Shown here piece by piece: positions 36,240-39,644 of a stretch of 64,000 bases of DNA. Position numbers and translations under genes: made by a program. Below the pieces are notes generated by a model, which made no database searches, was not told where the DNA came from, and saw only the letters and a list, made by a program, of their open reading frames with translations. Location: positions 2,224-66,223 of the forward strand of contig PIVK01000016.1 in NCBI GenBank assembly GCA_003354135.1, read 5' to 3'. The DNA is from Rhodospirillales bacterium. GTDB lineage: Bacteria > Pseudomonadota > Alphaproteobacteria > Rhodospirillales > GLO-3. Within the stretch, counting starts at the first letter, position 1. Each line of letters starts with the position of its first letter.

Positions 36240-36527
36240 GTCGTCCGGTGGGGGCAGTGTGACGGTCGTGCCGGATGACTGAAGGCACAGCCCCCCCACG
36301 TATTGTGCCGCGAAGTCGTGCCACCAGCAGAAAACAGGTGGCAATGCCTGCCCCACCTCTCCCGCCCCCAGCCACATCAGGCCATGTCCGGAACCTTGGG
36401 CAAAGGCATCCACAAGCCGCGCCGCGATCTTGTCTTCCAGGTCGGGAGAATCCTCGGCTTTTTCGGAAACGAGGTGTCCTTGCGGGGTCAGGCGGAGGCC
36501 CAGGCGGGACACGGTTTTCGGGGGCAT
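36240..36527 (-). pseudogene. N-terminal remnant of an SNF2-like helicase gene
   Basis: ORF 36156..36527 starts MPPKTVSRLGLRLTPQGHLV...GLMWLGAGEVGQALPPVFCWWHDFAAQYV. It then runs into the soxYZ-like 3' end with no helicase domain. Confidence 0.35.
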
Positions 36528-36602
36528 GGCGTTCCCTCACCGTCTTATTTAAGCGGTTTGTCGGCCCGGCGCGCCGTTGGGATAGAGAAGCAGGGAGATC
36601 GA

Positions 36603-36688
36603 CATTTCATTCCGTTTCTGTCCGGCTGGACGACGCATCCCCCCGCTTCCGTCACGGCCAGGACGGCGGCCGCGAAGTCCCAGACCTT
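36603..36688. repeat. 86-bp duplicated fragment of the IMPase-family gene (second copy 38932-39017)
   Basis: 82 of 86 nt are identical to 38932-39017, which is internal to CDS 38715..39644. The two copies are in direct orientation. Confidence 0.9.
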
Positions 36689-36691
36689 TTA

Positions 36692-36827
36692 TCTGTAATG
36701 ACGGCGCAGCTGTGCCGGGGTCAATGCGGTATCGAATGCTATCGTTGCGTATTTGTCCTGCAAAGCAGTCCACAACGGAATCGACGGCTTCGGTTTGATA
36801 GGACTGGACCTTGAATCTCAGCTTCAT
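36692..36827 (-). pseudogene. N-terminal remnant of a type III restriction res / DEAD-box helicase gene
   Basis: [38 protein letters not shown] is the typical res-subunit N-terminus. It breaks off after ~45 aa at the IMPase fragment. Confidence 0.5.
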
Positions 36828-36971
36828 TGTTTCGACCCCTTGAAGGTCACAAACGTTGCGTTGGCGCTGTAGCAGGATTGAACCATTCGGAATTTCCGAA
36901 GGGTTGCTCTGGAGAAGCTTTTCTGCCCGTCCCACAGAATTATTCTGCATTTATTCTGCAAAAGGCGTTTT

Positions 36972-38615
36972 TTATTCTGCGTTTTTTATCACCAAAACCC
37001 ACTGAGAAGCTTTCTTAGGCCCTTGATTTTCAATAACTCCCGACCTTTTTAGTTTGGTCAAAAGATTGTCCAGCTTCCTTTTTTTCTGCACCGGTGTCAG
37101 GGCCTCGCTTAATTTATCGAGCAAAAGATTATCGATCTCTTCGCGTGACGCCGTGTTGAATTTTTGCAAATAATCGGTAATCAGCTTGGCGTAAAATTCA
37201 TCATCTTGTGCCCGTGTACGAATGTAGGCGGTCCTGCTGGCCGTCGCCGCCGCAACCGTTGCTGACACATGGAAATTGGGTTTACGCCCTTCGATCAGTT
37301 TGTTACGGCGCAAGCGTTTGATCATGTCATCGGTCAACGGCAGGTGTTTCTGCACCCGGTCGAGGGCCAGGATTTCATCAAGCGGCAAATCGGTTTTCTG
37401 GATTAGCATGCGGCTGTATGCCGGATCGACCACCCGGCCATGAATGGTGAGTTTTACCGCCCCCGCCTCTTTCAGGTCGTAATCCGGCATGGGGAAATAT
37501 CGTTTGGCTTGGCTGACATGGATTGAGTGAATGCCGTAACCCATGGTGTCGATCATATTCAGTTCGGCCATGACCTGGGCAAGAAACGGGTTTCGATAGC
37601 GGCGCGGAGTTTTTTCTCCCGTAATGTAGTCGTCGGGCGCGCCTTCAAAGAAAGCGCCTTCGTTTTCAAACACCAGACGGTCGGGAAACTCCGTGACGAT
37701 AACGCGGCCGTTACGGGCGTAATCCTGGTGAGCGATACAGTTATGCAGAGCCTCCAGAACACTACGCTGATCATATTTAGCGACTTCGATCGCCAGCAAT
37801 TGATCTTCTGGCAGAATACGGACCTGAATGTTGCGAATTTTACCATAGAGCGCGGTACTGTTGAGCAAAAACGGTGCGCCGAAATGTTCATAGGCGCGCT
37901 CTTCTCCCTCCAGCTTCCAGGTAAGCTGCGCCGGGTGGGGGGTTAGCAAATGAGTGGCTTCCGGCTTGCCGAGCAACAGTAAAGCCGTGCGCGTGATCTG
38001 ACCGTTCTGAGTGACCTTTGCCCGGTCCAGAAACGTCGCCAAGGGCCATTCCATGACTTCTTTTTCGGGAATGCGGTTGGCGTGTTTGCGGGCGAACGCC
38101 TCTCGCGCCATTTGCGCGGCGGCCTCGTCCAGATCATCGAGTGTGGCACCGGGCACCGTTTGCGCCGACCAGTCGGTCGCCCCCGTTTGCTGGCGAATTT
38201 CATCCTGCTTGTCCAGCCCCAGCCCAACCAGGCTTTCTCCGGCACGGGCATAGTAATGCCCCTTCCAGGCAATCGGGATGCCGTGCGGGGTCGCCGGAAT
38301 TTGCATCATCACAACACGGCCCTGCGCATGTTGCAGAACATGCAGTTCCTTGAAGTGAATTCCCGGGTCCGTATCGTCGGCGATTTGCCGTTTTAGGCTC
38401 TGCAAACGCTCCGGTTCCTGGCGGTAATCGGTGCCTACAACGTGTCGGTCATCATTACGCACACCGAAAACAAGCCATGCTTGCTCAAGCCCCCGCAGAT
38501 TGGCTTCGTTGGCGAGTGCCGAGAAATAGCGCCCGATTTTATCTGTGCTGAAATCATTCGTCGCTTCCTTGAACTCGATCACCTCGTTTTCCCAGGTATC
38601 GATCAGGTCGTTCAA
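36972..38615 (-). CDS. AlbA_2 (Schlafen-type) domain protein with HATPase_c_4-like and C-terminal wHTH regions
   Basis: ENEVIEFKEATNDFSTDKIGRYFSALANE...WLVFGV is the AlbA_2 region. ALHNCIAHQDYARNGRVIV is the ATPase-like region. The C-terminus looks like a winged helix. Confidence 0.75.
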   Translation of the reverse strand: MNDLIDTWENEVIEFKEATNDFSTDKIGRYFSALANEANLRGLEQAWLVFGVRNDDRHVVGTDYRQEPERLQSLKRQIADDTDPGIHFKELHVLQHAQGRVVMMQIPATPHGIPIAWKGHYYARAGESLVGLGLDKQDEIRQQTGATDWSAQTVPGATLDDLDEAAAQMAREAFARKHANRIPEKEVMEWPLATFLDRAKVTQNGQITRTALLLLGKPEATHLLTPHPAQLTWKLEGEERAYEHFGAPFLLNSTALYGKIRNIQVRILPEDQLLAIEVAKYDQRSVLEALHNCIAHQDYARNGRVIVTEFPDRLVFENEGAFFEGAPDDYITGEKTPRRYRNPFLAQVMAELNMIDTMGYGIHSIHVSQAKRYFPMPDYDLKEAGAVKLTIHGRVVDPAYSRMLIQKTDLPLDEILALDRVQKHLPLTDDMIKRLRRNKLIEGRKPNFHVSATVAAATASRTAYIRTRAQDDEFYAKLITDYLQKFNTASREEIDNLLLDKLSEALTPVQKKRKLDNLLTKLKRSGVIENQGPKKASQWVLVIKNAE

Positions 38616-38714
38616 GGTTTATGTTAATTGATTTTCGTCCATAGTGCGCCTCATGGAACAGTTTGACGAACTTGGTCAGGCGGATCACCCACCCTTCGGG
38701 TGTGGTCGGCGAAT

Positions 38715-39644
38715 TCACCGTTTCTTGTCCCATGCCTCGATCATGTCTTCAACGCGTTTCTTGTCATCGGGATCAAGCTTGCCGAACTTCCGAAAGAAGG
38801 CCTCCCTTACGGCTTTTTCATCGGGATCTGCCGGCTCGTCGAGCAGATCATCCGGTGTCGCCTCCAGGGCCGTCGCGAACTCCATGATTTCCCGGTTCTC
38901 CGCCATCAGGACGCCGGTATGGAGCCGGTCCCATTTCATCCCGGTTCCGTCCGGCTGGACGACGCATCCCCCCGCTTCCGTCACGGCCAGGGCGGCGGCC
39001 GCGAAGTCCCAGACCTTCCCTCCCCGGCAGTTGACGTATAGGGCTGCATGTCCCCGCAGCAACGCCACGGCGCTCCCGACGGCGGTGGCAAGGGCGCGGT
39101 TCGCCAGGCTGGCGGCGACGATCTCCGCCATCCAGGCGAATTCGTTCGTTCGCAGGTGTGCATTGAGTTCGAAAAGGGCGATCCCGTCCGAAAGGCGTTG
39201 CCCCTGGTCCAGGACGACGCGACGGCCGTCCAGCCATGTGCCGCCACCCCGCCAAGCGGTAAGCGTCGATCCGAGGGCAGGCTGGTGCAGAACCCCCGCC
39301 ACCGGTTCACCACGGTCCACGAACGCCAGACTGAGGCCCCATTCGGGACACCCGTGGACGAAAATGTTCGTTCCGTCGAGTTCGTCTACGGCGATGTACG
39401 TTTCCGGCAGAACCGCGTCATTGTCCTGCTCTTCCATGACCAGGGGGATGGACGGAAAAGCGGCGGCGAGTTTGCCTGAAAGCACGCGGTGGGATTCTTC
39501 ATCCGCGGCCGTCACCAGATCGGCCGGAGCCTTCTTCCGCACGTCAAGCGGCCCGCCCCGCATATCCAGCAACAGCTCCCCGGCATCGCATGCAAACCCC
39601 CGAAGCGTTTCCGCGATTCCGGGAAGGTCTCGGTTTCTCCTCAT
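38715..39644 (-). CDS. inositol monophosphatase/CysQ-family phosphatase with acidic C-terminal tail
   Basis: The motifs are DLVTAADEESH, AVDELDGTNIF and WDFAAAALAVTEAGG. The start at MRRNRDL (39644) follows GGGAG. Confidence 0.75.
   Translation of the reverse strand: MRRNRDLPGIAETLRGFACDAGELLLDMRGGPLDVRKKAPADLVTAADEESHRVLSGKLAAAFPSIPLVMEEQDNDAVLPETYIAVDELDGTNIFVHGCPEWGLSLAFVDRGEPVAGVLHQPALGSTLTAWRGGGTWLDGRRVVLDQGQRLSDGIALFELNAHLRTNEFAWMAEIVAASLANRALATAVGSAVALLRGHAALYVNCRGGKVWDFAAAALAVTEAGGCVVQPDGTGMKWDRLHTGVLMAENREIMEFATALEATPDDLLDEPADPDEKAVREAFFRKFGKLDPDDKKRVEDMIEAWDKKR

Follow-up and report, generated by a model that had tools for sequence, protein, structure and literature searches.

Defence-gene fragments between a soxYZ-like and an IMPase-family gene in a Rhodospirillales contig: a probable scar of serial insertion and deletion

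The DNA considered here is a window of 64,000 nucleotides (nt) from a Rhodospirillales bacterium (contig PIVK01000016.1 of assembly GCA_003354135.1, positions 2,224 to 66,223 of the forward strand), and all positions below are counted from its first letter. Between a SoxYZ-like carrier gene and an IMPase-family gene lies an interval of about 2.7 kb. It forms a patchwork of pieces from at least three unrelated modules, mostly anti-phage, to which a dead 86-nt copy of IMPase sequence is added. Positions 36235-38891 most probably represent a non-functional or barely functional scar, left as horizontally acquired modules, mostly of defence type, were inserted and deleted in series between core genes. 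A sequence-only reading of the same DNA had described a recombination scar of several events. This description holds, with five or six junctions within 2.65 kb and fragments that all lie on the minus strand. Along that strand, the order is IMPase core, capH remnant, tentative capP remnant, AlbA_2 gene, a 145-nt spacer, res stump, 19 nt, repeat copy 2, 36 nt, SNF2 stump, and the soxYZ stop codon.

Gene fragments and their intact relatives

Sequence alignment shows the identities and limits of the fragments, their intact relatives, and the operon of origin (Table 1). The largest piece derives from a Type III restriction-modification (R-M) system. Three alphaproteobacterial plasmids (Phaeobacter porticola pP97_c, Sulfitobacter OXR-159, and Neotabrizicola shimadae) carry, in this order, a helicase-related gene, a DUF4391 gene, mod, a homolog of the AlbA_2 gene, and res. 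The plasmid Mod and Res proteins match the PADLOC Type III profiles (MTase_III, E=4e-181; REase_III, E=0), and the same operon occurs on E. coli IncFIB plasmids without the AlbA_2 gene. Since the window keeps exactly the part of this plasmid order that runs from AlbA_2 to the start of res, the AlbA_2 gene and the res stump are one contiguous fragment of such an operon (helicase-DUF4391-mod-AlbA_2-res). The sequence-only reading had placed the AlbA_2 gene between two helicase-gene stumps. Both stumps are real; however, AlbA_2 and the res stump make up a single Type III piece, to which the SNF2 stump is unrelated. The helicase, DUF4391, and mod genes of the operon have no match anywhere in the window, as judged by tblastn with queries that included Mod from loci L008 and L010. 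From this gene content, the locus should be unable to support any restriction or modification activity.

The res stump aligns with residues 1-40 of the Res protein of L010 (70% amino acid (aa) identity) and with residues 1-51 of that of L008 (53%; E ~3e-12). Annotated DEAD/DEAH (Res) genes on 45 plasmids match it over residues 1-40 with identities of up to 70% (E=2e-11 to 3e-12), and the PADLOC REase_III profile PDLC03647 does so over positions 1-27 of 989 (E=7e-7). At the DNA level, the first 75 nt of the E. coli plasmid res genes share 80% identity with the stump. The res peptide has a single close relative, P0068. The locus that begins with P0068 runs collinear with complete Type III Mod and Res (residues 1-1009), interrupted only by frameshifts. 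The 133-aa open reading frame (ORF) that contains the res start has no Pfam or NCBIfam match and reads repeat copy 2 in a frame other than that of IMPase. The proposed out-of-frame fusion of the two is thus borne out by the ORF frames. Intact L008 Res carries ResIII and RE_endonuc domains. In the window, the family N-terminus is present, and the ResIII/DEAD core, the C-terminal RE_endonuc domain, and an adjacent cognate mod are absent. The stump is therefore best regarded as a remnant and not as a functional Res member.

The AlbA_2 protein is about 61% identical in aa sequence to its plasmid homologs from end to end. Its native ATG lies at 38642, where the homolog alignment begins, with a GAGG Shine-Dalgarno motif 7 nt upstream. 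An in-frame TAA at 38619-38621 (codon 8) interrupts the gene, and the long ORF resumes at a TTG at 38615 (547 aa). Either of two states would fit: a dead gene, or one expressed by termination-reinitiation, whose product lacks nine residues. Look-ups of the exact products of the AlbA_2 ORF of the window and of P0001 returned no record.

Several side observations concern this operon. In the spacer downstream of AlbA_2, the motif GCAGAATAA occurs three times within about 40 nt (36940-36975, minus strand). One occurrence covers the last codons and stop of AlbA_2, two follow just downstream, and it is absent elsewhere in the 64 kb. The triple may represent either an operator or a micro-duplication at the end of the gene. 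A different direct repeat of about 10 nt (TACGAAAGAA-like, present twice) lies in the equivalent spacer before res in the intact operons L008, L009, and L013. The SNF2-like helicase of the operon matches the PADLOC profile C3a139 'HKD+Snf2' with E=5e-129 (L008:3131-13774, L009, L013+L015, and L010:1050-10078). On Sinorhizobium fredii pSfreNXT3c (L014:6001-7624), an orphan AlbA_2 homolog is split over three frames, with no mod, res, or helicase gene within 6 kb. It is another eroded copy of the AlbA_2 family and illustrates the same fate elsewhere. A full-text literature search for DUF4391 returned nothing relevant to such Type III operons.

The SNF2 stump has a different source. Its DNA (36550-36235) is 90.5% identical to locus L004 over 24 nt of upstream sequence with the ribosome-binding site (RBS) and about 97 codons. 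L004 encodes an intact 897-aa protein with DUF3670, SNF2-rel_dom, and Helicase_C domains, followed by a SWIM zinc-finger gene. Aa identity to this protein reaches 88% over the first 98 residues and 85% over residues 1-105, and similarity to the upstream region of L005 extends to 36566. The resemblance of the two stumps to SNF2 and res, which had been read by eye, is confirmed by these alignments. Intact relatives of the stump genes, which the sequence-only reading advised seeking, were also found (L004, L008, L010, and L013), none of them syntenic. For the SNF2 stump, that reading gave about 95 aa from 36527 to the end of the soxYZ-like gene. The ATG lies at 36527, and the homologous part comprises about 97 codons and ends at 36235, 6 nt from the soxYZ stop codon.

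The whole 123-aa stump ORF (36527-36156) has no Pfam or NCBIfam match, and its many database relatives are all short. Likewise, a HMMER search with the stump retrieved mostly short proteins. Such matches are expected because the gene is about 3 kb long, the median contig of the collection measures about 1 kb, and the query is N-terminal. On a 1.9-Mb contig (L002), one N-terminal SNF2 piece overlaps an ORF of 766 aa that carries the DUF3670, SNF2-rel_dom, and Helicase_C domains. Two other assignments of the stump were considered and rejected. It does not represent a small standalone protein family, as the short matches are partial or frameshifted genes (as at L002) and the intact protein of L004 exists. 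Nor is it the helicase of the Type III operon, given the lack of similarity to the L008 and L010 helicases and the SWIM-partnered architecture.

At the other end of the interval, the IMPase gene had been taken to be intact, which is not the case. The gene is chimeric. At about 38885, some 40 nt past the end of repeat copy 1, it switches in frame to the 3' half of a capH-like gene, so that the last 58 codons or so are a capH-like remnant. The native last 10-20 codons of IMPase are missing, and homologs measure 254-280 aa versus 309 aa for the window product. This exact 309-aa product is on record (P0070), and all homologs cover only about 80% of it. In the alignment, IMPase homologs end soon after the last helix, whereas the window protein runs about 45 residues further. 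The capH-like tail is absent from all IMPase homologs examined, and DNA similarity to the closest IMPase contig (L007, not syntenic) stops at 38882.

The tail (38891-38718) is 52% identical to residues 49-106 of a helix-turn-helix (HTH) protein of L011 (E=1e-14, whole-window search) and matches positions 54-101 of 103 in the PADLOC capH profile (E=3e-10). The matching HTH regulators of about 106 aa on Rhizobium plasmids adjoin ImmA/IrrE peptidases and CBASS genes. An origin of the tail from the 3' end of a Type III mod gene was ruled out, since it has no similarity to the Mod proteins of L008 or L010 and is capH-like. Past the capH stop, a capP-like start is tentatively recognised: residues 1-19 of the ImmA/IrrE protein of L012 match it over 19 aa with 37% identity (E=0.004, with a 600-nt subject only). 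It has no PADLOC profile match. AlbA_2 thus does not follow IMPase directly, as had been read; the capH and capP remnants were missed between them, as was the true start of the AlbA_2 frame with its early stop.

Table 1. Features of the locus, in window coordinates, and SNF2 stumps located on other contigs (contig handle and coordinates)
Feature	Position	Strand	Details
SoxYZ-like carrier gene, core flank	35240..36229	+	NCBIfam TIGR04557 E=8e-73, Pfam SoxY+SoxZ; stop codon 36227-36229, 6 nt from SNF2 breakpoint
Read-through tail of the SNF2 stump ORF, 26 codons, antisense to the soxYZ 3' end	36156..36234	-	no SNF2 similarity; L004 alignment ends at 36235
DUF3670-type SNF2 helicase, 5' stump	36235..36566	-	~39 nt upstream with RBS, ATG 36527, ~97 codons, G7 run ~36287-36293
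36 nt between copy 2 and SNF2 stump	36567..36602	-	possibly SNF2 upstream region; no source elsewhere in window
Repeat copy 2, dead internal IMPase fragment, 29 codons (KVWDFAAAVLAVTEAGGCVVQPDRNGMK)	36603-36688	-	82/86 identical to copy 1
19 nt between res stump and copy 2	36689..36707	-	res similarity ends ~36708-36713; no source in window
Type III restriction enzyme (Res), 5' stump, ~40 codons	36708..36826	-	ATG 36826; plasmid Res and PADLOC matches
Spacer from AlbA_2 to res stump, 145 nt	36827..36971	-	GCAGAATAA three times, counting the AlbA_2 stop region
AlbA_2 (Schlafen-type) + HATPase_c_4 gene	36972..38642	-	Pfam SLFN_AlbA_2 5e-16, HATPase_c_4 1e-12
Tentative capP-like ImmA/IrrE peptidase, 5' stump, ~24 codons	38645..38718	-	GTG overlaps capH remnant stop (GTGA), as in L012
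capH-like HTH regulator, 3' remnant, last 58 codons + stop, fused in frame to IMPase	38715..38891	-	protein and PADLOC matches
IMPase-family core, ~251 codons, GC 0.66	~38892..39644	-	Pfam Inositol_P 3e-40, profile positions 8-261/271
Repeat copy 1, inside IMPase core	38932-39017	-	repeat alignment, 64-kb window scan
SNF2 stump	L035:1-142		break at codon ~41; fused to ArsR/rhodanese ORF
SNF2 stump	L036:549-665		break at codon ~43
SNF2 stump	L034:607-817		break at codon 58
SNF2 stump	L005:2218-2450		break at codon 67; between groESL and 5-oxoprolinase-type genes
SNF2 stump	L006:1106-1353		break at codon 79; between transposase-like remnant and ParE gene

The 86-nt direct repeat

The direct repeat reported in the sequence-only reading is real and sharply bounded. 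Its two 86-nt copies are in direct orientation, 82/86 identical, and 2329 nt apart from start to start. When 400 nt around each copy were aligned, similarity proved confined to the 86 nt on both sides. A scan of the 64-kb window found no other repeat of at least 35 nt except one 35-nt match at 77%. Because nothing comparable exists in the window, the repeat is neither a chance match nor a member of a dispersed repeat family. The peptide specified by copy 1, KVWDFAAAALAVTEAGGCVVQPDGTGMK, forms the conserved WDxAAG region of the IMPase fold (codons ~210-238 of IMPase). In the IMPase frame, copy 2 encodes the same peptide with three substitutions, after which unrelated sequence follows. As copy 2 is 95% identical to the IMPase gene of the window and 78% to the closest other IMPase, it must have formed in this lineage and not come from outside. 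What copy 2 represents is a stranded piece of duplicated IMPase sequence, not an attachment site.

The four differences between the copies lie at repeat positions 9, 13, 17, and 61. At each of them, copy 1 has G or C where copy 2 has A or T, and three of the four are nonsynonymous. Mutation bias usually runs from GC to AT, and this pattern is what unconstrained decay of copy 2 under such a bias would give. The sequences that flank copy 2 are less readily traced. The window was searched for sources of its 19-nt and 36-nt flanks, and none was found there. The 36-nt flank shows a marginal gapped match to sequence upstream of SNF2 in L005 and L034 (5/500 and 42/500 shuffles).

It had been suggested that the repeats could still delete a 2.2-kb AlbA_2 segment. 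Such a deletion is possible in principle, although it would remove 2329 bp and truncate IMPase. The longest perfect run shared by the copies is 43 nt. This exceeds the minimum generally cited for recombination by RecA and makes a rare deletion plausible. The predicted product is a 256-aa IMPase that ends in 19 unrelated residues (…GMKCRSPCFSIPTARRADKPLK) and lacks the last strand and helix of the fold. Since this truncates IMPase, the deletion is probably selected against, provided that the enzyme matters to the cell. Counter-selection of deletions could explain the persistence of the fragment.

Recurrent SNF2 truncation and the surrounding genes

The 5' piece of the SNF2 gene is not confined to this locus. 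It recurs as a stump, 80-95% identical, in five other short contigs, with differing break points and differing sequence beyond them (Table 1). L005 and L034 have 843 nt of upstream context in common, with breaks 20 nt apart. Truncation of the SNF2 gene thus appears to have happened repeatedly, as judged from these alignments. Part of this recurrence is ascertainment, as the query was N-terminal, only called ORFs were searched, and contigs of low coverage may be chimeric.

A run of seven G residues spans codons 78-80 of the SNF2 gene. Two close homologs (P0003 and P0069) are frameshifted there, the break of L006 falls at the run (L006:1340-1353), and similarity to about a dozen more distant homologs breaks off at residues ~79-87. 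The run could be a fragile or phase-variable tract, or it could reflect homopolymer sequencing error. In all, a SNF2 piece of about 120-330 nt is found in at least six contexts, with breaks at codons ~41, 43, 58, 67, 79, and 98 and upstream junctions at -10, -24, and -39 nt. It is very unlikely that the 5' end of this gene is a preferred site of breakage and joining and not a passive victim of deletion. If it were, a fragile or phase-variable G-tract might be responsible, or a mobile or one-ended replicative element with the SNF2 start at its terminus. The 86-nt IMPase patch would then be a templated-repair footprint of the same process.

As a separate observation, mod, res, and SNF2 genes in the ENA assemblies ERZ1700618, ERZ25039539, and ERZ25039595 (L001:6594-10986; L002:7001-9668; L003) are split by frameshifts into numerous short ORFs, yet collinear with intact proteins. 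These frameshifts are probably indel errors of long-read assembly. Breaks of this type raise the count of apparent stumps in protein databases.

Composition sets the interval apart from its surroundings. GC content is 0.44-0.58 over ~36.6-42.6 kb, IMPase excepted, against a background of 0.58-0.63. The AlbA_2, res, capH, and capP pieces (0.47-0.58; AlbA_2, 0.53) are foreign in composition; the IMPase core has 0.66 and the SNF2 stump 0.64. Defence and toxin-antitoxin (TA) genes of atypical composition cluster here between core genes, namely the Type III R-M fragment, the capH remnant, and HigA-M78, HigB-like, and YfbU genes. In addition, the low-GC stretch goes on over 39957-42247 (minus strand) with three genes, which encode an HTH/M78 fusion, a HigB-like protein, and a YfbU-domain protein. 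The first, a 375-aa fusion of a HigA-type HTH and a Peptidase_M78 domain, matches the PADLOC profile PD-Lambda-2_B (E=1e-36) and carries an (EA)n run near 40150-40200. The 111-aa HigB-type product resembles such toxins by eye and has no family match in Pfam, NCBIfam, or PADLOC profile searches. In the scar itself, family, tRNA, and Rfam scans found no tRNA gene, recognised integrase, transposase, or Rfam RNA, and promoter and terminator scans of the locus returned nothing informative.

Three collection scans, with the SNF2 stump, SoxYZ, or IMPase as the starting point, identified no syntenic relative. The genome-collection scan with the SNF2 stump returned one 4-kb contig, the metagenome scan with SoxYZ none, and the IMPase scan a best identity of 54%. 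Low GC content, defence-type content, and independent SNF2 truncations in related contigs lend indirect support to a putative defence-island hot spot at the locus. Its status as a hot spot, which is defined by variable occupancy across strains, is inferred, as is the origin of copy 2, since syntenic relatives were not found.

Competing explanations and comparison with known systems

The scar may be understood as follows, where the order and mechanism of events, and the lack of function in the fragments, are what we infer. Defence modules would have been acquired horizontally, one after another, between the soxYZ-like and IMPase genes. An illegitimate, homology-independent deletion or insertion end point at each junction is the simplest view, and selection would presumably remove those end points that destroy soxYZ or the IMPase fold. 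Copy 2 would stem from two events, a short-lived duplication from IMPase position 39017 to res codon ~45 and a later trimming by deletion, and would have decayed once stranded. The TAA at codon 8 of AlbA_2 and the exclusively GC-to-AT changes of copy 2 are signatures of such decay.

Several points weigh against this explanation. No genome syntenic with the locus was found that would fix the ancestral state and the number and order of events. Apart from its early stop, AlbA_2 keeps an uninterrupted ORF of 547 codons, and expression may persist through the TTG that lies 3 nt beyond the TAA. The in-frame fusion of IMPase to the capH remnant could have been selected and not passively acquired. The duplication and subsequent deletion proposed for copy 2 are one of several fitting scenarios, and its flanks of 19 and 36 nt have no detectable source. 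Finally, the window probably comes from a metagenome-assembled contig.

The alternative closest to the preferred explanation differs from it only in the origin of the repeat. A single deletion between res codon ~45 and the SNF2 upstream region would have been filled, through end joining or a switch of template, with an 86-nt patch copied from IMPase at a distance of 2.3 kb, and the two short flanks would be further filler. Copy 2 is short and sharp-edged, its flanks are short and sourceless, the source is near and on the same strand, and one event would suffice where the duplication needs two. However, no template for the flanks exists in the rest of the window, and no end-joining genes were seen, though none were searched for. 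The 4.7% divergence of the copies tells their age only and not their origin. To our knowledge, patches on the scale of 86 nt are poorly documented in bacteria. Templated filling is accordingly held to be unlikely without being far-fetched, and for copy 2 itself duplication and trimming are only slightly favoured over a templated patch. A functional arrangement is quite unlikely. AlbA_2 would then work alone in defence or regulation and be translated by reinitiation at the TTG; the CapH tail of IMPase would be an oligomerising or regulatory domain, and the stumps would encode small proteins. The AlbA_2 ORF indeed keeps both domains and has a Shine-Dalgarno motif at its ATG and a TTG just past the TAA, the IMPase/capH junction is in frame, and every SNF2 stump found has a start and at least 40 open codons. 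On the other hand, the stump ORFs lack catalytic domains and run into out-of-frame or antisense sequence, and their open starts are partly an effect of ascertainment. Moreover, their break points vary by contig, which is unexpected for a conserved small protein, and expression of the products is a prediction from sequence.

Two further explanations are weaker still. The repeats could be the attL and attR sites of an AlbA_2-bearing integrative element that was inserted site-specifically in the 3' part of IMPase and is still excisable. Direct repeats around a lower-GC segment at a gene 3' end do have the usual geometry of integrated elements. Even so, neither the segment nor its vicinity contains a recognised integrase, excisionase, or tRNA gene, and the segment consists of gene fragments only, from two unrelated modules. 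The sequence past the distal copy is not a displaced IMPase 3' end, the repeats are only 95% identical, with differences that all look like decay of copy 2, and no third 86-mer exists in the window. This reading is therefore extremely unlikely. Equally remote is a chimeric join made during assembly, despite a source that appears to be an assembly contig and related contigs that are short and in some cases of low coverage. Chimeras form at shared repeats, and five of six junctions have none. Furthermore, the 86-nt copies differ at four positions in a pattern of biological decay, the order of AlbA_2 and res matches complete plasmids, and the IMPase/capH junction is in frame.

With serial insertion and deletion as the preferred explanation, the locus exemplifies a known and ordinary kind of phenomenon, the routine erosion of acquired defence modules between core genes. 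Each fragment is assignable to a known family, and by sequence none qualifies as a functional member, since catalytic domains and partner genes are absent. This has a bearing on annotation: the gene called IMPase is a chimera, the AlbA_2 gene is possibly dead, and the ORFs of 123 and 133 aa are meaningless stumps. The plasmid comparison also identifies the AlbA_2/Schlafen-type ATPase as an optional insert between mod and res in a Type III family with an SNF2-like helicase and DUF4391. Should genomes of the same species appear, the five or six junctions would provide a compact and datable record for the study of illegitimate recombination.

Comparison with known systems illustrates how little of each module is retained. 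Type III operons on plasmids share with the window an AlbA_2 gene (61% aa identity) followed by the res start on the same strand, with the same REase_III profile PDLC03647. Here, in contrast, only an internal fragment is found, which lacks the helicase, DUF4391, mod, and about 96% of res. An early stop interrupts AlbA_2, and the AlbA_2-res spacer measures 145 nt versus 61 nt in the plasmid operons. The pair formed by the DUF3670 (PF12419) SNF2 gene and its SWIM neighbour, as at L004, is matched over the RBS and the first ~97 codons at 90% DNA identity, and the family N-terminus is collinear with the intact member. Unlike that pair, the window stump does not reach the DUF3670, SNF2, and Helicase_C domains, and no SWIM gene accompanies it. 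CapH/CapP pairs, which lie beside CBASS and other defence operons, are represented by the C-terminal domain of CapH and the GTGA start/stop overlap. The N-terminal HTH DNA-binding half, almost all of capP, and hence an intact partner peptidase are gone, no CBASS genes are present, and the remnant is translated as a tail of IMPase.

The likeness to attL/attR duplications in gene 3' ends is limited to direct repeats around foreign DNA, with one copy inside the 3' part of a gene. A recognised integrase, identical att cores, and a displaced gene end after the distal copy are all absent here, and the cargo is fragmentary. The closest parallel lies in eroding defence and TA islands. Papers on the defence-island repertoire of E. 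coli (PMC10121019) and on TA erosion in Photorhabdus (PMC13617665) describe variable loci of defence or TA genes where degraded systems and remnants of genes occur. Like those islands, the locus is a lower-GC and presumably variable stretch between core genes that combines defence and TA genes with remnants. What sets it apart is how closely its junctions are packed, with five or six in 2.65 kb, and the presence of a stranded 86-nt duplicate from a flanking gene.

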